Notes under the pieces: generated by a model
Databases searched by the model: none
Told to the model about the DNA's origin: nothing
The model's input: the letters and a program-made list of their open reading frames with translations, nothing else
In this document: positions 2,460 to 48,672 of the stretch, piece by piece
How positions within the stretch are numbered: position 1 is the stretch's first letter
Layout: each line of letters begins with the position of its first letter
NCBI GenBank assembly: GCA_038203565.1
Contig: JBBRDV010000001.1
Span: 72,335-136,334 of the forward strand
Length of the DNA: 64,000 bases
Direction: 5' to 3'
From: Atribacterota bacterium
GTDB taxonomy: Bacteria; Atribacterota; Phoenicimicrobiia; Phoenicimicrobiales; Phoenicimicrobiaceae
Translations under genes and position numbers: made by a program

Positions 2460-2556
2460 ATTCCCTCTATCTTTAATTCGTAGCACGTATTGCGTATCGA
2501 GTATCGCGTGTAAACGCTATACGCTCTACGCTAGTTTTATTCACGAGCGACTATTT

Positions 2557-7368: not shown

Positions 7369-7543
7369 ATTAATCGTTGATTTTAAATACAACTTTTAGT
7401 TGTCAGTCTACAGTCTGGTACAAGGGAATATAATAATACAACCTCTACGCGCTTTGATTTTTCTATAAACTGGCAACTTGAAACCTATAATTATTAATTA
7501 TTAATGTATTTATTTGCTAAAGGCTATTCACTAATGACTAATT
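7369..7543. mobile_element. MITE-like dispersed repeat, copy A (~175 bp) bounded by degenerate inverted 12-mer termini
   Basis: Left end ATTAATCGTTGA; right end CTAATGACTAAT (reverse complement ATTAGTCATTAG). The core is ~80% identical to copy B at 22920-23117. Confidence 0.6.
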
Positions 7544-8262: not shown

Positions 8263-8607
8263 TTATCTTTTTTCTTTAACTTTACTGGTTTTCCCAATCC
8301 TATCTCTTAAGTAATATAATTTTGCTCTTCGCGTTTTCCCTTTTTTTACAGATACTATTTTTACAATATTCGGTGAATGTAATTGAAATACTTTTTCTAC
8401 CCCAACACCTTTGGAAATTTTTCTTACTGTAAATGTTTCTTTACTTCCACCATGCTTTTTAGCTATGACTACTCCTGTAAAAACTTGTACTCGCTCTCTG
8501 GCGCCTTCAATAATTTTTTGATGTACTTCCACTGTATCACCAGGTGCAAATTCGCTATTCTCTTTTTTAGACTGTTCTTCTTCTAATTGTTTAATGTAAT
8601 CTACCAT
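8263..8607 (-). CDS. rplS: 50S ribosomal protein L19
   Basis: L19 signature FAPGDTV.V..KI.EG.RER.Q.F.GVVI. The likely start is the internal MVDYIKQ codon; the ORF track extends to 8643. Confidence 0.9.
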
Positions 8608-9494: not shown

Positions 9495-10000
9495 ATTAAT
9501 CCATCTACCATGCTTATGGTAATTCGTTTTTTTTCTAAACTGACATTCTTTACAACTTCACGAATAGCCGGGACAAACAATTCTTTTTTATTTTTTCCTT
9601 TAACTATATATACATCATTACTTCCCGTGCTTATTACATTTTCTACTTTTCCCAGAAAAACATTATTTTCGGTATATACTTCAAGGCCAATTATCTCAAA
9701 GATAAAATAAGTGTCTTTTGGTAGTTTTACAGCATTTTTTCTTTCAATTTCAAGAAAAGACCCTACTATCGTTTTGGCTTCTTTGATGTTTTCTATTTCC
9801 TTTAATTTTAAAATAACCGTATCTTTTTTTGTTCTTATTTTCTCTATATTTAATATTGCTTGGCAATTTTTATTTCTTAAAAAAACGGTGGCTAAATTTT
9901 TAAATCTGTCAATTGAATCGGTAAGGGGCAAAACGTTAACTTCACCTTTATTGCCCTGGGTAGAAACCACTTTACCAATTATAATAAATTCTTGATTCAA
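9491..10000 (-). CDS. rimM: ribosome maturation factor RimM
   Basis: GKVVSTQGNKGEV..PLTD N-terminal domain plus a PRC barrel. 4-nt overlap with trmD. Confidence 0.85.
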   Translation of the reverse strand: MNQEFIIIGKVVSTQGNKGEVNVLPLTDSIDRFKNLATVFLRNKNCQAILNIEKIRTKKDTVILKLKEIENIKEAKTIVGSFLEIERKNAVKLPKDTYFIFEIIGLEVYTENNVFLGKVENVISTGSNDVYIVKGKNKKELFVPAIREVVKNVSLEKKRITISMVDGLI

Positions 10001-10635: not shown

Positions 10636-10664
10636 GTAGGGGCGCGATACATCGTGCCCCTACA
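10636..10664. promoter_or_regulatory. GC-rich hairpin between ffh and rpsP
   Basis: TGTAGGGGC-GCGATACATCGT-GCCCCTACA: a 9-bp stem, unusually GC-rich for this genome, with no trailing U-tract on either strand. Confidence 0.4.
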
Positions 10665-22919: not shown

Positions 22920-23117
22920 ATTAGTCGTTAGCTTCAAATACAAGTTTTTAGTTATCAATTTACAGTTTATTACAATGGAGTATGATAATACAACCTTAAC
23001 ACGCTTTGAGTTTTCTAAAAACTGGCAACTTGTAACTTGAAACTTAAAACCCATAACTTATTAATCATTAATGTGTTTTATTTACTAAATACTATTCACT
23101 ATTCATTAACGACTAAT
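22920..23117. mobile_element. MITE-like dispersed repeat, copy B (~198 bp) with perfect-ish terminal inverted repeats
   Basis: ATTAGTCGTTAG ... TTAACGACTAAT termini. The core (TACAACCT..ACGCTTTGA.TTTTCTA.AAACTGGCAACTTG.AAC) aligns with copy A. Confidence 0.6.
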
Positions 23118-23169
23118 ATAATATCTTAATAACTTTAAAAGTATATAATTTCTTATTGAAAAAAGCAAA

Positions 23170-24525: not shown

Positions 24526-24666
24526 AGTTTTTTCCTCCCAATCTTTTGCCTATATTTAAACTTGACAATTTATTTCTAATTATTTTTAGCAGGTTCGACG
24601 TATCGTACGCCCACCTCTTAGCCTTAATCTTCTCCACGCAATACTCGATACTCGATGCTAATTACT

Positions 24667-29813: not shown

Positions 29814-30652
29814 CCATACCATTCTTTAAGTTTATCAATTATTTCATTAGTTATCCAGTCAGGAGTAGAGGCACCACTGGCAATTCCAACTTTACCTTCA
29901 GGATAAAACCATTTATATTTTAGCTGGTTTTTAGTTTCAATATGATAAGTCTTTACTCCCTGATTCTTAGCTATTTCTGCTAATCGAGTTGTATTAGCGC
30001 TTTCCTTTCCTCCAATCACCAAAATCACATCTACTTCTTTTGCCAACTCAAATACGCTCTTTTGTCTTTCCGTGGTAGATTTACATATTGTATTAAATAT
30101 TCTTAATTCCTCAGCTCTGTTTAACAGGGCAGATGATAATTTAAAAAAATCATAAATATTTTTAGTGGTTTGAGAGATAAGACCAATTTTTTTCTTTCTA
30201 GTTATCTTCTCTGCATCGGAAATTGAATTTATTACTAAAGCATTGTTTTGAATCGTATCCAATAAACTTAGTACTTCGGGATGTTTCTTGTCTCCATAGA
30301 CAACTAAAAAATAGTCCTTCTCGTATAAATAACACGCTATTTTTTGTACTTTTCTAACATATGGACAGGTAGTGTCAACTACCGATAATTTTTTTTGGTA
30401 CGCTTTTTTAAGCATTGTAGGAGAAATACCGTGCGCCCTGGTTATAACCGTGCTTTCTTCCGGAACTTCATCTAAATTATCTGTTATCTTTACTCCCTTT
30501 TTTATAAAATATTCTATAACCTGAGGATTATTTATTATTGAACCTAACATATACAGGTTATTTTTTCTTGCTTTTAAGGCATTTTTGGCTAAGTTTACGG
30601 ATTTTTTGACTCCAAAACAAAATCCCATTTTTTTAGATAATATTATTTTCAA
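29810..30652 (-). CDS. ispH: 4-hydroxy-3-methylbut-2-enyl diphosphate reductase
   Basis: IspH/LytB family (GFCFGV.., ..TTCPYV..). Its 3' end converges with and overlaps rpmB by 4 nt. Confidence 0.9.
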   Translation of the reverse strand: MKIILSKKMGFCFGVKKSVNLAKNALKARKNNLYMLGSIINNPQVIEYFIKKGVKITDNLDEVPEESTVITRAHGISPTMLKKAYQKKLSVVDTTCPYVRKVQKIACYLYEKDYFLVVYGDKKHPEVLSLLDTIQNNALVINSISDAEKITRKKKIGLISQTTKNIYDFFKLSSALLNRAEELRIFNTICKSTTERQKSVFELAKEVDVILVIGGKESANTTRLAEIAKNQGVKTYHIETKNQLKYKWFYPEGKVGIASGASTPDWITNEIIDKLKEWYG

Positions 30653-31359
30653 TCTGTTTTTCCCCTGTATTTTTTATGCTTTCTTATTATCTTTAAAATC
30701 TCATCCTTAACTTCCTCAATGCTTTTTTCCGTAGAGTCTATAACAATAGCATCTTTTGCCTTGATCAAAGGAGCATATTTTCTCTTGCTATCTATTTCAT
30801 CCCTCTGTACTATCTGTTTCTTAACTTCTTCATAATCTACATTATAACCTTTATCTACAAGTTCTGTATATCTCCTCTTAATTCTTTCCTCTTCAGAAGC
30901 AGTAAAATATAATTTTATATCTGCCTGCGGTAAAATTACCGAACCTATATCTCTGCCTTCCATTACAATATTCCCTTTTTCAGCTAATCTTCTCTGCAGA
31001 TGAATTAACTGTTTTCTAATTTTAGGCAGTCTGGCTATCTGGGAAACATTTTGATCAATCCTGGGATTGCGTATTTCCTCAGTCACATCTTTTCCGTCAA
31101 CAAAGATGTAATAATAATCATTAAGGCTCTTGTAATTTGCTCTTTCTATAGTTATACAGGTATCTGAAACCAGATTAGAAATCATCTCTTCATCGTTTAT
31201 ATTAATATTATTTTTTAGAACCTTCCAGGTTATTACCCTGTAAATCGCTCCTGTATCGATATATAAAAAGCCTAATTCCCGGGCAATCAATTTACCCATA
31301 GTGCTTTTTCCTACAGCAGCTGGTCCATCTATAGCGATTACTAAACCATTATTTTTCAT
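30649..31359 (-). CDS. cmk: cytidylate kinase
   Basis: IAIDGPAAVGKST..IDTGAIYR. Confidence 0.9.
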   Translation of the reverse strand: MKNNGLVIAIDGPAAVGKSTMGKLIARELGFLYIDTGAIYRVITWKVLKNNININDEEMISNLVSDTCITIERANYKSLNDYYYIFVDGKDVTEEIRNPRIDQNVSQIARLPKIRKQLIHLQRRLAEKGNIVMEGRDIGSVILPQADIKLYFTASEEERIKRRYTELVDKGYNVDYEEVKKQIVQRDEIDSKRKYAPLIKAKDAIVIDSTEKSIEEVKDEILKIIRKHKKYRGKTD

Positions 31360-31371
31360 TAATTCACCCCA

Positions 31372-31438
31372 AATTAGTCGTTAGCCTGTCTGCGCCTGCC
31401 TGTGCAGGTTCGCACAGGTAGATGAATAGTCATTAGTG
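31372..31438. repeat. ~67-bp hairpin-containing intergenic element, copy 1
   Basis: ATTAGTCGTTAG-CCTGTCTGCGCCTGCCTGTGCAGGTTCGCACAGGTAGATG-AATAGTCATTAGTG. Internal 7-bp stem CCTGTGC/GCACAGG. Copy 2 lies at 39546-39614 in inverted orientation. Confidence 0.7.
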
Positions 31439-31554
31439 TTAAATACACGTTTTAAGTTTTCAGCTCTCGGTTTTCAGTAAGTAGGGCCGTATTGCTTATT
31501 CTATTAACCGGTAAACCGAGTAACTGGTCAACTAATACGATATACGATATACTG

Positions 31555-32280
31555 CTAAACAATTTTCTTCAGACTTTTAATTTCTTCTTTATTTAAATAC
31601 CTGTATTCTCCTGGTTTCACGCCTTTTAAAGAAACTGGGCCTGTCTGGATTCTTGTCAGTTTTAAAACAAAATGCCCAATATATTCAGCCATTTTTCTAA
31701 TCTGTCTTTTCTTCCCTTCTTTTATTTTTATTTTTAATATAGCATTTCCGTTAATAGTTTTTAATAAGTAAATATTGCAGGGTGTCAGTTTATAATTATT
31801 CTTTAAAGTCACTCCTTTTGATAATGTCTTTAATTTTTCAGAAGAAGGAATTCCCTTTACTTTAACAATGTAAACTTTTTCTACTTCTTTTGCAGGATGG
31901 GTTAAGGCGTGAGTCAGCTCACCATCATTAGTAAGAATTAATAATCCTTCAGAATAATAATCTAATCGACCAACCGGATACACTCTTTCTTTTATATCTT
32001 TTAACAAATCCAAAACAGTCAGCCTCCCAAAAGGGTCAGATAAAGAAGTTAAATACCCTTTAGGCTTATTTAGCAATATATAAGAATAATGTTTATTCTC
32101 TTTATATTTTATTAATTTACCCTTTACTTCAATTTTATCTTTTTTAGGGTCAATTTTAGTTCCTAACTCGGTAACGACAGAATTATTTACCCGCACCTGC
32201 CCCTGAAGGATAAGTTCCTCACATTTTCTTCGAGAATCAATTCCTGCTCCTGCTAAATATTTTTGTAATCTTTCAATCAT
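31555..32280 (-). CDS. rluB: rRNA pseudouridine synthase (RsuA/RluB family) with S4 domain
   Basis: N-terminal S4 domain (RLQKYLAGAGIDSRRKCEELI) plus the catalytic core GRLDYYSEGLLILTNDG. Confidence 0.85.
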   Translation of the reverse strand: MIERLQKYLAGAGIDSRRKCEELILQGQVRVNNSVVTELGTKIDPKKDKIEVKGKLIKYKENKHYSYILLNKPKGYLTSLSDPFGRLTVLDLLKDIKERVYPVGRLDYYSEGLLILTNDGELTHALTHPAKEVEKVYIVKVKGIPSSEKLKTLSKGVTLKNNYKLTPCNIYLLKTINGNAILKIKIKEGKKRQIRKMAEYIGHFVLKLTRIQTGPVSLKGVKPGEYRYLNKEEIKSLKKIV

Positions 32281-37989: not shown

Positions 37990-38160
37990 AAATGATAGAA
38001 CATAGTATTTCGTATTTCGTATTTCGTTAAGAAAGACTAGCGCAGAGTGTGTAGCGTTTAGTGTAGAGTTAAGAAAGAAGAATACAAAAGTCTAATTCGT
38101 ATTTGGTGAATCGTATCTCGGATGTAACGATATACCATATACGATATACGATATACGATT
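37990..38160. repeat. cluster of 7-bp-periodic tandem repeats and ACGCT-module
   Basis: (GTATTTC)x3 at 38004-38026; CTAGCGCAGAGTGTGTAGCGTTTAGTGTAGAG, the reverse complement of the CTCTACGCTAAACGCT..CACT module; CGTATCTCG; and (ATACGAT)x3 ending at the pdp stop. Confidence 0.7.
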
Positions 38161-39487
38161 AAATAAATTCTTTAACGTCTTCCTTACTGAAGGTTGCTAA
38201 GATTAGTGGTAATTTTTTAGGTTTATTGTCTCCTATAACAAATGAGGAGAACAATTTGTTCTTTGCTTCTTTTAATTTTTCTGAATCATTATAATACACT
38301 TCGGCTAAATTTTCATTAATATTAACCTTACTGCCTACTTTCTTCTTTAAAATAATTCCTACAGATAAATCGATTTCTGATTCTTTTTTCTCTCTGCCTG
38401 CTCCTAAAAGCATGGCGCTCTCACCAATTAATCGGGAATCTATTTTCTGTATATAGCCGCTAATAACCGCTTTAATTTTAGTACAATGTTTGGCCAGAGG
38501 TAATAATTCCGGTTTATCTATTATTTTCGGATTTCCGCCCTGAGCGGCTACCATCTCCTTAAATTTACTGAAAGCTGTCCCCTCTTTTAGTATTTTTTCT
38601 AATCTGTTTCTTCCTTCCTCATAGTTCTTTGCTGTTCCGCCTAATTTTAGCATATAAGCACCTAGAACCAGACAAAGGTTACGTAAATCTTCCGGTCCTC
38701 TATTTTTTAAAATTTCGATAGCTTCTTTAACTTCTAAGGAATTACCGATAGCAAAACCCAAAGGTTCATCCATATTTGAAACTACTGCCACGGTCTCTTT
38801 GCCAAACTCTAATCCTATATCTACCATTATTTTCCCTAATTTCAAGGCATCTTTATATTCTTGCATAAAAGCACCGCTACCGGTAGTAACATCTAATACA
38901 ATGGCATCGGCACCAGCAGCTAATTTTTTACTCATAATACTGCTTACGATTAAGGGAATACTATCTATCGTTCCGGTGACATCCCTTAACGCGTATAATT
39001 TTTTGTCTGCCGGAGCCAGATCTGAAGTAGGACTGATAATTGATGCTCCAACTTTCTTAACGATATTTATAAATTTATTTAGACTTAATTCTGTTTTAAA
39101 CCCTTTGATTGATTCTAACTTATCTATTGTACCGCCGGTATGACCTAATCCCCGTCCCGACATCTTGGCTACTGGCACACCTGCTGCTGCCACCATGGGG
39201 GCTAAAGCAAGGGTAGTAGTATCTCCTACTCCTCCTGTACTGTGTTTATCGACCTTAATACCGGGAATGGAACTAAGGTCGATAATTTTTCCAGAATGAA
39301 CCATAGCCATAGTTAGATATTTTATTTCATCAATATTCATTCCTTGAAAATAGATAGCCATCAGCATAGCAGACATTTGGTAATCCGGAATCCTATCTTC
39401 GCAATATTCTTTTATCATGAAATTTATTTCTTTTTGAGTTAATTCCTGGCCATCTCTTTTTTTGATAATTAAATCATAAAATCTCAT
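38159..39487 (-). CDS. pdp: pyrimidine-nucleoside (thymidine) phosphorylase
   Basis: ..DKHSTGGVGD.. and ..GRGLGHTGGT.. Confidence 0.9.
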   Translation of the reverse strand: MRFYDLIIKKRDGQELTQKEINFMIKEYCEDRIPDYQMSAMLMAIYFQGMNIDEIKYLTMAMVHSGKIIDLSSIPGIKVDKHSTGGVGDTTTLALAPMVAAAGVPVAKMSGRGLGHTGGTIDKLESIKGFKTELSLNKFINIVKKVGASIISPTSDLAPADKKLYALRDVTGTIDSIPLIVSSIMSKKLAAGADAIVLDVTTGSGAFMQEYKDALKLGKIMVDIGLEFGKETVAVVSNMDEPLGFAIGNSLEVKEAIEILKNRGPEDLRNLCLVLGAYMLKLGGTAKNYEEGRNRLEKILKEGTAFSKFKEMVAAQGGNPKIIDKPELLPLAKHCTKIKAVISGYIQKIDSRLIGESAMLLGAGREKKESEIDLSVGIILKKKVGSKVNINENLAEVYYNDSEKLKEAKNKLFSSFVIGDNKPKKLPLILATFSKEDVKEFI

Positions 39488-39545
39488 TTAATGTTTCCTC
39501 CCAATTGTATTCTTTGGGAATTTTTTTTGCATTTTGTATTTAAAA

Positions 39546-39614
39546 CTAACGACTATTCATCTACCTGTGCGAACCTGCACAGTCAGGCGCAGACAGGATA
39601 TTTACTAATGACTA
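39546..39614. repeat. ~67-bp hairpin-containing intergenic element, copy 2 (inverted, overlaps hppA stop codon)
   Basis: Reverse complement is nearly identical to 31372-31438, differing at one position. Confidence 0.7.
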
Positions 39615-41576
39615 TTTTATAAATAGAGGAACAAACACCAGAGCGACTATAGACATTACTTTAATTAATATATTCATAGAAGGGCCGGCAGTATCTTTAA
39701 GAGGATCACCTACAGTATCACCTATAACTGCGGCCTCATGGACTTTTGTACCTTTTCCCCCATAATTTCCCATTTCAATATATTTTTTGGCATTATCCCA
39801 AGCTCCTCCGGAATTGGCCATCTGTATAGCCAACAATACTCCTACTAACACTGCTCCAATCAACATTCCTCCCAATGCTTCTGGTCCAAGTACTATTCCT
39901 ACTACTATAGGGGCAATTATGGCTAACAACCCGGGCAATACCATCTCTTTTAAAGCTCCTTTAGTGCTAATATCTACACATCTCGCAGAATCCGGCTTAG
40001 CTTTTCCCTCTTTCAAACCAGGAATTTCTCTAAATTGCCTTCGAACTTCTTCTATCATTAAGAAAGCTGTTTTCCCTACTGCATTTATGGCTAAAGCAGA
40101 AAAAAGATAAGGCAAAAGACCACCTATAAACATCCCGGCTACCACTATCGGATTGGTTATGCTTATAGTTTCTAAACCTACAGATTTACAATAAGCTGAA
40201 AATAAAGCCAAAGCAGTTAATGCTGCTGAGCCGATAGCAAAACCCTTTCCAATAGCAGCTGTGGTATTTCCTACAGCATCTAATGAATCGGTAATTTTTC
40301 GAACCTTGGGATCCAGCCCGGCCATTTCGGCAATTCCACCCGAATTATCAGCAATCGGACCATAGGAATCAACGGAAACCGTCATGCCGACTATAGAAAG
40401 CATTCCTACCGCTGAAACAGCAATACCGTATAAACCCGCGAATTTATAGGCAACTAATACCGTAAAGGCAATCACGAGTAGTGGTATAGCAGTACTTTGC
40501 ATACCGACAGCCAATCCCGAAATAATGGTAGTTGCTGCTCCGGTAAGTGATGATTTAGAAATTGATTTTACCGGAGGATAATGGTAAGAGGTATAATATT
40601 CAGTTACTAATCCGATAATTATACCGGCAATCAATCCAGCGGTAGTGGCATAAAATACATTTAAACTATTAAATAAAACATTAGAAAGAAAAGCAGAAGC
40701 AATAATAACTAAAAATCCGCTTGCCAAAGTTCCTTTGGTTAAAGCAAGATTTAGATTCTTTTCACTTTTAGTATTTACAAAAAAGGTGCCTATAATAGAA
40801 GAAATTGCCCCACAAGCAGCTAACAATAGAGGGAACATAACTCCTTTAGCCCCTTCAAATAATAATCCACCTAAGATCATGCTGGAAATAATTGCACCTA
40901 CATAAGATTCAAATAGGTCTGCACCCATTCCGGCTATATCCCCTACATTATCCCCTACATTATCAGCGATAACTGCCGGGTTACGAGGGTCATCTTCGGG
41001 TATCCCTACTTCCACCTTTCCCACTAAATCAGCTCCCACATCTGCTGCCTTAGTAAATATTCCACCACCTACTCTGGCAAATAAGGCTATAGAGCTCGCG
41101 CCTAAAGCAAATCCATTTATAATTTCCGGGTCTCTGATGAAGTAATATAAAATACCTAAACCTAATAATCCAAAACCTGCTACCGACATACCCATTACTG
41201 CACCACCGGAAAAAGCAATTTTTAATGCTTTGCTTATTCCGCCATCCATGGCAGCATGAGCAGTCCTCGAATTTGCTTTAGTGGCAATTTTCATTCCGGT
41301 TAAACCTGCTAATCCAGAACAAATTGCCCCCACCACAAAAGATAAGCTGGTAATAGGGTTTCTCACCCAGCCCAGTACAAGACTAACTACAATGATAAAA
41401 AATACTAAAACGCTATATTCTCTTTTTAAAAAAGCCATAGCTCCCTGTTCAATCATCTTTGATATTTCTTGCATTAATTCATTTCCCGGTTTTTCTCTAA
41501 TTACCTTCAGAGAAAGAAATACGGCAAATATAAGGCTAATTATGCCACTAAGAGGGATTAACAGTTCAATTTGCAT
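39612..41576 (-). CDS. hppA: membrane-bound ion-translocating pyrophosphatase
   Basis: 654-aa polytopic protein with the V-PPase signature GDNVGD..DLFESY.. and GDTVGDP.. Confidence 0.9.
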
Positions 41577-41724: not shown

Positions 41725-41754
41725 TCTCCAATTGGATAATTGGCCAATTGGAGA
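41725..41754. promoter_or_regulatory. 30-bp palindrome between ppdK and hppA
   Basis: TCTCCAATTGG-ATAATTGG-CCAATTGGAGA. Perfect 11-bp arms; the core CCAATTGG is itself palindromic. Candidate operator upstream of hppA. Confidence 0.45.
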
Positions 41755-41766
41755 ATCGGTGAATTA

Positions 41767-48374: not shown

Positions 48375-48672
48375 AACTAAATATAGTATCGAGTATCAAG
48401 TATCCAGTATCGAGCGAAGGAAATCGGTTGTCAGTTATCGGTTATAATTTTTAAATAAAGAAATAAAAAGAATTGGATTCTGTATTCTGACTTCTTTTTA
48501 TTAACTAACCAGCAAGGGATGCAATGTGTAACATTTGGTAAGTAACGTGTAATAAGTAACCCGTTGTTGTAAATCCAGAACTATAGTTTTATTACATATT
48601 ACTTAATACTGTGTTCTTTTCACTCTACGCTAAACGCTCCACACTAGTTTGCACGAGATACGAGATACGAAT
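48375..48672. repeat. two repeat clusters in the recO-glyQ spacer
   Basis: 48380-48415 TATCGAGTATCAAGTATCCAGTATCGAG (TCGAGTA-type heptads) and 48612-48672 CTCTACGCTAAACGCTCCACACTAGTTTGCACGAGATACGAGATACGA. Confidence 0.65.

Follow-up and report, generated by a model that had tools for sequence, protein, structure and literature searches.

How does a GC-rich hairpin of a few dozen nucleotides come to lie twice, nearly unchanged and in opposite orientation, between two different pairs of genes in one bacterial chromosome? The DNA considered here, referred to as the window, is a stretch of 64,000 nucleotides from an Atribacterota bacterium. An earlier note, made from its letters alone, had described a 67-bp hairpin element present in two copies, and had raised recent spread or gene conversion as its origin and an RNA-level function, a REP-like element or a protein recognition site as its nature. 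The analysis presented below indicates that the two copies are probably recent insertions of a 38-nt non-coding mobile element, an imperfect GC-rich palindrome that is a long-loop member of a widespread family. A miniature mobile element of the REP-like or SDR-like kind is the best reading of the data. The precise, duplication-free gain of a hairpin of 27-38 nt is directly visible in the sequences compared, both for the two copies of this lineage, which share one target motif, and repeatedly for family members in other places.

The two copies and their genomic setting

The core of the repeat is 47 nt long (CCTGTCTGCGCCTGNCTGTGCAGGTTCGCACAGGTAGATGAATAGTC) and occurs exactly twice in the window, in opposite orientation, at 31385-31431 on the plus strand and 39551-39597 on the minus strand. 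The two cores differ by one mismatch; no such pair is expected by chance (0 matches in 100 shuffles), which bears out the description of two near-identical, oppositely oriented copies. Without gaps, the inverted repeat can be followed over 75 nt at 91% identity (31373-31447 and 39535-39609). The single difference in about 65 positions given earlier holds for the 47-nt core, and fails beyond it, where the left flanks of the two copies differ by a 7-nt unit (TAAATAT) and by substitutions. The repeat unit itself has the sequence CCTGTCTGCGCCTG[C/A]CTGTGCAGGTTCGCACAGGTAGA, in which copy 2 carries A in place of C at element position 15 (plus-strand coordinate 39583, corresponding to 31399 in copy 1). 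Only these two copies, both singlets and 8 kb apart, are visible in the 64-kb window.

Both copies are intergenic, the first between the rluB-like gene and cmk, the second between hppA and pdp, and the gene calls agree in this with the earlier placement. Homologues of cmk and pdp are labelled by their sources as Atribacterota, Candidatus Atribacteria or Caldatribacteriota. The window has a GC content of about 32%, and nearly every gene in it is encoded on the minus strand. On the minus-strand mRNA, copy 1 ends 25 nt upstream of the cmk start codon, and the cmk leader (GGGGTGAATTA-ATG) is also found in relatives without the element. Copy 2 stands downstream of the hppA stop codon, at a distance of 14 nt; the stop lies in the flanking motif, so that the overlap between copy 2 and this codon reported earlier does not exist for the 38-nt element. 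The coordinates of these features are collected in Table 1.

The intergenic DNA of the window consists largely of period-7 tandem tracts and small GC-rich palindromes. A palindrome family of the GTAGGGG type is also present, at 10636-10663. The motif TAGTCRTTAG is found at 10 places in the window, all of them intergenic, where chance would give 0.18, and four exact TAGTGAATAG sites remain unoccupied. The tract that forms the right flank of copy 1 recurs at 22922 and 63637 without a hairpin.

Table 1. Positions of the two element copies, their flanks and the neighbouring genes in the window.
Feature	Position	Strand	Remark
Copy 1, 38-nt hairpin CCTGTCTGCGCCTGCCTGTGCAGGTTCGCACAGGTAGA	31385-31422	+	boundaries from the empty site in L150/L151
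Copy 2, 38-nt element	39560-39597	-	boundaries from the empty site in L152-L155
Left target flank of copy 1, ATTAGTCGTTAG	31373-31384	+	pre-existing heptamer-like tract; motif also in empty sites of relatives
Right target flank of copy 1, TGAATAGTCATTAGTGTTAAATACA	31423-31447	+	also found to the right of copy 2
Right target flank of copy 2, TGAATAGTCGTTAGTTTTAAATACA	39535-39559	-	identical to the empty-site sequence of L152-L154
Left target flank of copy 2, AATAGTCATTAGTAAATAT	39598-39616	-	includes the hppA stop codon TAG, 39612-39614
Hairpin of the earlier note, CCTGTGC-AGGTTC-GCACAGG	31399-31418	+	one of two mutually exclusive folds
cmk	30649-31359	-	start codon ATG at 31357-31359
Shine-Dalgarno-like GGGGTG of cmk	31366-31371	-	not covered by the hairpin; read from the sequence itself
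RluB-type pseudouridine synthase	31555-32280	-	gene beyond copy 1 as seen from cmk
pdp	38159-39487	-	flanks copy 2
Membrane pyrophosphatase (hppA)	39612-41576	-	flanks copy 2; stop codon TAG at 39612-39614

Empty sites in related genomes

The extent of the element was established by comparison with relatives in which the same spacers are empty. Two related contigs (L150/L151), 95.0% identical to the window in nucleotide sequence over 19.9 kb, contain, at the place of copy 1, the uninterrupted sequence ...ACTATTCA^CTAACGACT..., where the window reads ...ACTATTCA[38 nt]CTAACGACT...; their rluB-cmk spacer ends in ...AAACTAACGACTATTCA^CTAACGACTCATTTGGGGTGAATTA-ATG, and the window is identical except for 38 nt at the marked point. 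The insertion point of copy 1 lies directly after the final TAG of its left flank. Four further relatives (L152-L155, 93-95% identity) are empty at the place of copy 2, with TAGTAAATAG^TGAATAGTCGTTAG against TAGTAAATAT[38 nt]TGAATAGTCGTTAG in the window. Past the hppA stop codon these relatives read TAGTCGCTAGTAAATAG^TGAATAGTCGTTAGTTTTAAATACAAAATGCA, to which the window, in the reading direction of the element, adds 38 nt and an adjoining G-to-T change. The synteny from hppA to ispH is kept in relatives, and in more distant ones (L005-L016 and L146-L149, 88-90% identity) the element is absent at both loci, in spacers of 62 to 470 nt.

Because these empty sites match the window minus exactly 38 nt, the unit is 38 nt long, and the remainder of the 67-bp extent first assigned to it is target DNA. 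The repeat had looked 67-75 nt long because the right flank is common to both copies. Both copies occupy the target TAG^TGAATAGTC(R)TTAG and face the same way with respect to it, and they appear inverted because the two target tracts themselves lie oppositely oriented in the chromosome. The TAGTCRTTAG motifs, described earlier as direct repeats bracketing each copy, are neither element ends nor duplications; they are pre-existing heptamer-tract DNA of the target and are present in the empty sites. No target-site duplication was found in three clean pairs of filled and empty sites. One of these pairs concerns a 30-nt canonical copy that L155 carries in the loop of a GTAG-type palindrome, which is empty in L152-L154. 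In L009/L011, a related hairpin (TTGTCTGCGTGCGCACACGCACAGGTAGAT) similarly occupies the loop of a GGGGCTTGAT/ATCAAGC palindrome, of which L010 has the empty form. The close relatives contain one family copy in 108 kb. The absence of both copies from orthologous spacers of relatives at 93-95% identity supports the suggestion of recent spread.

The empty sites also bear on the question of whether both copies arose by insertion. The second copy in the window could have been produced by ectopic recombination between similar heptamer tracts instead of transposition: one true insertion would then have been followed by gene conversion or ectopic repair that carried the hairpin to the second locus. 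Such tracts are frequent in the window, the right flanks of the copies are nearly identical over 25 nt (TGAATAGTC[A/G]TTAGT[G/T]TTAAATACA), and a single base separates the two elements. The left flanks, however, diverge right at the junction (...GTCGTTAG| against ...GTAAATAT|) and share no homology there, and the right flank of copy 2 already stands unchanged in the empty relatives. The transferred unit would moreover have the exact canonical ends of the family (CCTGTCTGCG...CACAGG+YAGR), as in the unrelated L155/L152 pair. A secondary transfer of this type is thus unlikely, and two separate insertions are preferred.

An assembly or sequencing artefact can be set aside almost entirely. Inverted repeats do break de Bruijn graphs, and in an independent Logan assembly (SRR19962010), which has the cmk-proximal half of copy 1, the contig stops within the loop of the hairpin. 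That assembly nevertheless has the same junction sequence, and the family turns up across numerous unrelated projects, as well as on the finished plasmid of a strain in culture. The element is not known to resemble any common adapter or linker.

Two alternative folds

A canonical member of the family has the form 5'-CCTGT-CT-GCG(TG)..loop..(CA)CGC-ACAGG-(C/T)AG(A/G)-3'. Its lower stem (CCTGT/ACAGG) is separated by a CT bulge from the upper stem (GCG(TG)/(CA)CGC); the apex varies, and a conserved tail is left unpaired at the 3' end. CTG repeats in the arms allow pairing in two registers. The stems are supported by divergent copies that show compensatory changes (CTTGC...GCAAG in L051; ...CTGCC/GGCAC... 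in L025, L091 and L106), and sister subfamilies (CCTGCCTGC...GCAGGCAGG) pair in the other register. An 11-12-bp register rich in G.U pairs was considered as the sole fold and dropped, as the compensatory changes favour CCTGT/ACAGG in the canonical subfamily.

The 7-bp stem CCTGTGC/GCACAGG of the earlier note is formed in copy 1 and not fully in copy 2, in which the substitution corresponding to 31399 (C against A) removes the seventh pair. In copy 1 this hairpin reaches 10 bp (CTGCCTGTGC/GCACAGGTAG, including one G.T pair) and is marginally the best fold of the plus strand in RNAfold, at -18.4 kcal/mol against -17.2 kcal/mol for the family-type fold, in which CCTGT/ACAGG is followed by GCG/CGC and then by CCTGC/GCAGG. 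For copy 2 and for both reverse strands, RNAfold prefers the family-type fold. The window element can be described as the family ends with a 16-nt apex (CCTGCCTGTGCAGGTT), which by itself forms a small CCTG...CAGG hairpin. It looks like a tiny hairpin nested in the loop of another, the composite now moving as a unit. Similar composites occur in L080 and L129 (with CCTGCCTGCGCAGGCAGG), in L112 (with CCTGTCTGGCAGACAGGCAGG) and in L067 (with a GGCGCC hairpin).

A dispersed family of hairpins

The element belongs to a dispersed family of imperfect palindromes, in keeping with the earlier proposal of a REP-like element. The family consensus is (A)CCTGTCTGCG-TGC..loop..-CGCACAGG-(C/T)AG(A/G), mostly 27 or 30 nt in length. 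A scan of metagenomes with the pattern TGTCTGCG-N(4-30)-CGCACAGGTAGAT returned 46 loci, and a scan of viral contigs with CCTGTCTGCG-N(3-30)-CGCACAGG returned 82; from the size of the collections, about 10 and about 50 chance matches were estimated, respectively. Chance is estimated in the same way to account for a minority, about 25-30%, of the raw pattern matches in the large collections. Most matches share features that the search patterns did not impose, namely CC before TGTCTGCG, TG after it and a complementary interior; likewise, the CAG[AG] tail, which the pattern did not require, is present in 61 of the 87 distinct viral matches.

A covariance model built from 29 metagenome copies only scores copy 1 at 33.2 bits and copy 2 at 33.0 bits (E ~1e-8) and finds no other site in the window. 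On contigs already known to carry the family, it reveals additional, more divergent copies. The host contigs range from 32 to 69% GC and include other Atribacterota. A family copy is also carried by plasmid pSTJ1 of Sulfuricystis multivorans, a cultured Betaproteobacterium whose plasmid is finished, where it lies inside a hairpin that overlaps the start of an HTH gene. At least 11 copies are carried within 27 kb by a tailed phage, which has genes for portal, terminase, capsid and lysozyme. Among the cultured phages of INPHARED the family was not detected.

The 38-nt variant of the window is an intergenic family member whose length is not a multiple of three (non-3n), and its exact sequence is absent from the IMG/VR contigs and from the JGI metagenome matches. 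A scan of genome contigs with the hairpin of the earlier note (CTGTGCAGGTTCGCACAGG) gave three matches, in unrelated metagenome-assembled genomes of 48-59% GC, where about four were expected by chance, and none of the three has the features of the family. A full-text literature search with family sequence strings returned unrelated primers only, and the family sequence is not in the text or the examined supplements of one REP survey (PMC3733652). Absence from these sources does not show the family to be undescribed.

Nesting and occurrence within genes

Copies of the family are repeatedly found inside one another. Triple-nested copies are present in L048/L054, and nesting is also seen in L112, L038, L083, L035 and L091, in either orientation and always in the apical part. 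The idea that nested copies enter at one fixed phosphodiester proved wrong; the entry points cluster apically, in the loop or behind position 8 or 10. Perfect stems of 6 bp or more flank 8% of copies, compared with 1.4% of shuffled flank pairs, and there are more imperfect cases. No common target motif was found across the flanks of the family.

In its relation to coding sequences, the family carries the signature of a selfish element. Length is divisible by three in 88 of 110 copies, 27 and 30 nt being dominant, and 35 of 67 distinct sequences are free of stop codons in all six frames. Counted on simple stop-to-stop ORFs, family copies are rarer inside ORFs than random positions; long ORFs contain about one quarter to one third of the 3n copies and none of the 13 non-3n copies. 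The in-frame hosts, as identified with Pfam, are hsdR (three copies in L025 and more in L035), BrxC, a phage large terminase and phage capsid proteins.

The possibility that the palindrome is an operator, that is, a DNA site bound by a regulator or a nucleoid protein and present in duplicate at two promoters, has to be judged against this distribution. The conserved lower stem of an imperfect palindrome would suit such a site, and the cmk ribosome-binding site follows closely on copy 1, as the HTH gene does on the pSTJ1 copy. Yet close relatives with the same genes lack the hairpin, copies nest in each other and occur inside ORFs and phage structural genes, and no gene family recurs beside them. 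An all-vs-all BLASTP of the ORFs within 2.5 kb of metagenome copies detected no recurrent neighbour protein beyond orthologous contigs. An operator is therefore very improbable. An association with GIY-YIG, prompted by L035, was found in one further weak case (L049) and was dropped.

The hairpin as a possible RNA signal

A selected cis-acting RNA stem-loop, acting as a 3' stabiliser or partial terminator after hppA or as a 5' leader or processing hairpin before cmk, is a more specific form of the RNA-level function suggested in the earlier note. Both copies lie within likely minus-strand operon transcripts and form stable hairpins (-12.5 to -18.4 kcal/mol for the 38-mers; z = -3.6 for the 69-nt span of copy 1), and the forward strand of canonical members folds better as RNA than the reverse, at -17.3 against -12.7 kcal/mol, because of G.U pairs. 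Many REPs have also been argued to act as RNA hairpins (Di Nocera et al. 2013, PMC3733652). Against this role, the hairpin is absent at both loci in relatives of 93-95% identity, and transcription reads the two copies in opposite orientations, which is what the suggested comparison of strand and transcription reveals.

Terminator scans detected no terminator-like site at either copy, a promoter scan likewise showed nothing at the elements, and neither copy is followed by a T-run, the downstream bases being GCAGGCGCAG... for copy 1 and TGAATAGTCG... for copy 2. Rfam 15 gave no gathering-score match in the window, matches at E<=10 around copy 1 being noise, and nothing relevant at six family-bearing loci. 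The family as a whole occurs in unrelated contexts, including coding sequences, in both orientations, and a crude test based on crude gene calling found no orientation bias of copies relative to genes. It is therefore improbable that the stem-loop was selected for an RNA function. Any effect on the expression of cmk, hppA or pdp, through a stem-loop in a 5' leader or 3' trailer, is probably incidental.

Possible mode of movement and its significance

If the hairpin is a mobile element, its conserved parts suggest how it could be handled. A nuclease or transposase acting in trans may recognise the folded single strand through the lower stem, the bulge and the tail, which are the constant parts, the apex being free to vary and to accept insertions. 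The element would be copied or moved in trans and joined into exposed single-stranded or AT-rich DNA. On circumstantial grounds, a single-strand transposase of the HUH/Y1 type may be put forward as the candidate enzyme class; the best precedent would be the HUH/Y1 chemistry of IS200/IS605 and RAYT, which likewise leaves no duplication. A strict lagging-strand-template mechanism of the IS608 type is at odds with the two window copies, which point in opposite directions on the same replichore.

A phmmer search with E. coli RayT and IS608 TnpA against the ORFs of about 1.4 Mb of loci and of the window returned a single match, at 5330-6028 of L035. This RAYT-like gene scores 21 bits against Pfam Y1_Tnp, below the cut-off, and is flanked and interrupted by canonical palindromes of the GTAGGGG type, not by the family of the window element.

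A more far-reaching possibility, which is offered tentatively and may well prove wrong, is that the family represents undescribed cross-phylum "nano-transposons": single hairpins of 27 or 30 nt, taken from host to host by phages and plasmids, inserting precisely and without target duplication into exposed loops including their own, kept translation-neutral by selection, and moved by an enzyme other than a canonical RAYT. If this were true, they would be among the smallest mobile DNA units known, and their 3n length and freedom from stops in six frames would permit survival inside hsdR, BrxC, terminase and capsid genes.

With its ends, its empty sites and its target in one genome now exactly defined, what began as a curious pair of hairpins has become a case in which very small mobile DNA can be studied closely. 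The family consensus separates the parts that are recognised (lower stem, CT bulge and 3' tail) from the free apex. The occurrence of the family across phyla and in phages, its habit of nesting in itself and the 3n, stop-free make-up of its copies are relevant to the origin and movement of REP-like repeats, and to whether a mobile unit can be a single hairpin instead of a doublet. For annotation, the elements carry a warning: a short in-frame insertion in a defence or phage gene can be one of them, and contigs of Atribacterota assemblies can break where they lie.

Comparison with known systems

One close resemblance is to REP sequences. REP and REPIN elements are mobilised by RAYT (TnpA_REP) proteins, Y1 HUH transposases (Messing et al. 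2012, PMC3479197; Bertels & Rainey 2011, PMC3116915), and super-families tagged with GTAG or CGTC have been distinguished (Di Nocera et al. 2013, PMC3733652). The HUH/Y1 chemistry works on imperfect, bulged hairpins, guided by 4 nt at the hairpin foot, and creates no duplication, and binding and cleavage by RAYT need GTAG 5' of that foot (PMC3479197). The window family shares with REPs a GC-rich imperfect palindrome of 20-40 nt, a conserved unpaired bulge in the stem, G.T pairs and a conserved 4-nt tail at the hairpin foot, GYAG being a listed degenerate form of GTAG. Variable loops of up to 27 nt with self-complementary interiors, the occupation of other small palindromes, occasional in-frame gene copies and the lack of target duplication are further points in common.

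The family also differs from REPs. The conserved G(C/T)AG(A/G) tail of the window family stands 3' of the hairpin (...ACAGG-CAGR/TAGA), not as a 5' GTAG, and the 5' side is variable. Filled and empty pairs show single hairpins and not the inverted doublets of REPINs or BIMEs. Density in Atribacterota is low, with two copies in 64 kb and one in the 108 kb of relatives, and no RAYT gene flanked by family copies was found in about 1.4 Mb of loci and the window. REP families are usually lineage-specific, whereas the family sequence is near-identical across phyla and phages.

Another close parallel is with cyanobacterial SDRs. Elhai et al. 2008 (Genome Res 18:1484) reportedly described SDR1-8 of Nostocaceae as repeats of 21-27 nt nested in tandem heptamer (STRR) tracts. 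By their published description, SDRs resemble the window family in being very small and in part hairpin-forming, in lying inside heptamer tracts, and in inserting precisely at a defined target with presence or absence between related genomes. In papers citing that work, SDRs are reported only from Nostocaceae, and SDR5 is stated to insert between nucleotides 3 and 4 of HIP1 (PMC5861425, PMC4390886). The window family differs in its hosts, which are Atribacterota, a Betaproteobacterial plasmid, phages and many unidentified organisms.

Elements of the IS200/IS605 type act through imperfect hairpins on single-stranded DNA, cause no duplication and insert in a fixed orientation beside a short specific target (PMC3479197). 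Like these elements and their non-autonomous derivatives (PATEs), the window copies lack a duplication, and both sit at an identical target in the same orientation. The IS200/IS605 elements have two different subterminal hairpins, exceed 100 nt and use an invariant target of 4-5 nt. The window family has a single hairpin and no common target motif across its flanks, and the orientations of the two window copies do not follow replication.

Two other groups of small repeats invite comparison. Rickettsia palindromic elements (RPEs) are about 100-150 bp long and not known outside Rickettsia, in contrast to the 27-30 nt and cross-phylum occurrence of the window family. MITEs measure 50-400 bp and have terminal inverted repeats and target-site duplications. 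Those of the DDE type resemble the window family in being non-autonomous, dispersed and capable of forming hairpins; the latter differs in its 27-38 nt and in having no target-site duplication. The likeness to RPEs lies in the tolerance of in-frame palindromic copies within protein genes, RPEs having been described as palindromic selfish DNA in frame inside protein-coding genes (PMC3733652). Taken together, the window element behaves like a REP or a cyanobacterial SDR and is not a canonical GTAG-REP.

In-frame insertions and copy-rich viral contigs

Copies of the CCTGTCTGCG hairpin family lie in frame within real genes, encoding HsdR, BrxC, phage terminase and phage capsid, and the few confirmed in-frame hosts prominently include defence genes and genes for phage structural proteins. 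A single hsdR gene in locus L025 carries three in-frame copies; another hsdR, in L035, also harbours in-frame copies, one of them nested and adjoining an in-frame GIY-YIG-like segment. The tailed-phage contig IMGVR_UViG_3300044786_000060 (L067, L091, L103, L127) holds at least 11 copies within 27 kb; most of them occupy tiny intergenic gaps, and most are oriented as the genes are. A further contig listed as viral, IMGVR_UViG_3300033148_003842 (L112), has four copies in 10.7 kb.

Palindromes that house the hairpin

Palindromes of a canonical 5'-GTAG type, GTAGGGG-NNNGAT-nn-ATCNNN-CCC(CTAC), are found in the window and in its relatives and frequently house the CCTGTCTGCG hairpin in their loops. 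In L035, an inverted pair of these palindromes lies in frame within a RAYT-like gene. The hppA-pdp spacer of the window lacks about 160 nt seen in the close relatives L152-L155; two GTAG-type palindromes lie within this missing stretch, and both spacer ends are conserved. The hppA coding region itself contains a perfect 12-nt tandem, TATCCCCTACAT, in 2.3 copies, which on the coding strand reads ATGTAGGGGATA and thereby contains GTAGGGG, the head of these palindromes.

Positions of repeats and host genes in the window and in compared loci (L-numbers)
Feature	Sequence	Positions
In-frame host ORFs	L025	8656-11970
	L035	6001-7656
	L106	2-3052
	L072	2033-4198, 6468-8930
	L091	3797-6151
GTAG-type palindromes	window	10636-10663
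	L152	about 8480-8560
	L155	1180-1240
	L035	5620-5770
hppA-pdp spacer	window	39488-39611
	L152	8329-8611
12-nt tandem in hppA	window	40937-40964
CTTGCAGTATCGAAATTATTGAAATTCCGATACTGCAAG repeats	L039	5590-7190
	L045	
120-nt repeat copies	window	7394-7513, 22946-23065 (full unit about 22920-23118)
AATTGG(A/T)GAATTG-type tandem units	window	41728-41759
	L005	about 9930-10000
	L009	about 9930-10000
	L013	3395-3418
Contig end at hairpin copy 1	L001	1-52
Heptamer arrays	window	2486-2533, 23019-23105, 24641-24656, 31535-31552, 38005-38027, 38127-38159, 48385-48414, 48653-48670
	L005-L016, L146-L155	spacers

Other repeat families

A different repeated hairpin of 39 nt, CTTGCAGTATCGAAATTATTGAAATTCCGATACTGCAAG, occurs in L039 and L045, with one CCTGTCTGCG copy sitting among its repeats. 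Its matches to Rfam CRISPR-DR54 are weak and sub-threshold, and the spacing of the repeats does not resemble that of a CRISPR array. Besides the hairpin, the window contains a second repeat family of 120 nt (76% identity between copies), with no match in Rfam. The copy upstream of rpmF has inverted ATTAGTCGTTAG...TAACGACTAAT on its two sides. The start of this family, TT-AAATACAA-TTTTAG, also forms the continuation of several heptamer-tract sites, among them the one on the right-hand side of hairpin copy 1. In relatives, many start codons are directly preceded by tandem AATTGG(A/T)GAATTG-type units with a period of 7-8 and one GGAG or GGTG inside each, which amount to arrays of Shine-Dalgarno-like units.

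Heptamer tracts and their possible part in assembly fragmentation

The cmk-bearing Logan contig L001 terminates exactly in the loop of hairpin copy 1, which suggests that these inverted 38-mers and the heptamer tracts are among the reasons why Atribacterota assemblies are so heavily fragmented. In this clade, intergenic DNA consists for the most part of heptamers in short tandem arrays (CGTATCG, ATACGAT, AGTATCG, GTATTTC and others), in the window and in relatives' spacers alike, and orthologous spacers range from 62 to 470 nt among relatives. These arrays resemble the STRRs of cyanobacteria and the TAACTGA repeats of Beggiatoaceae genomes (PMC4679880).
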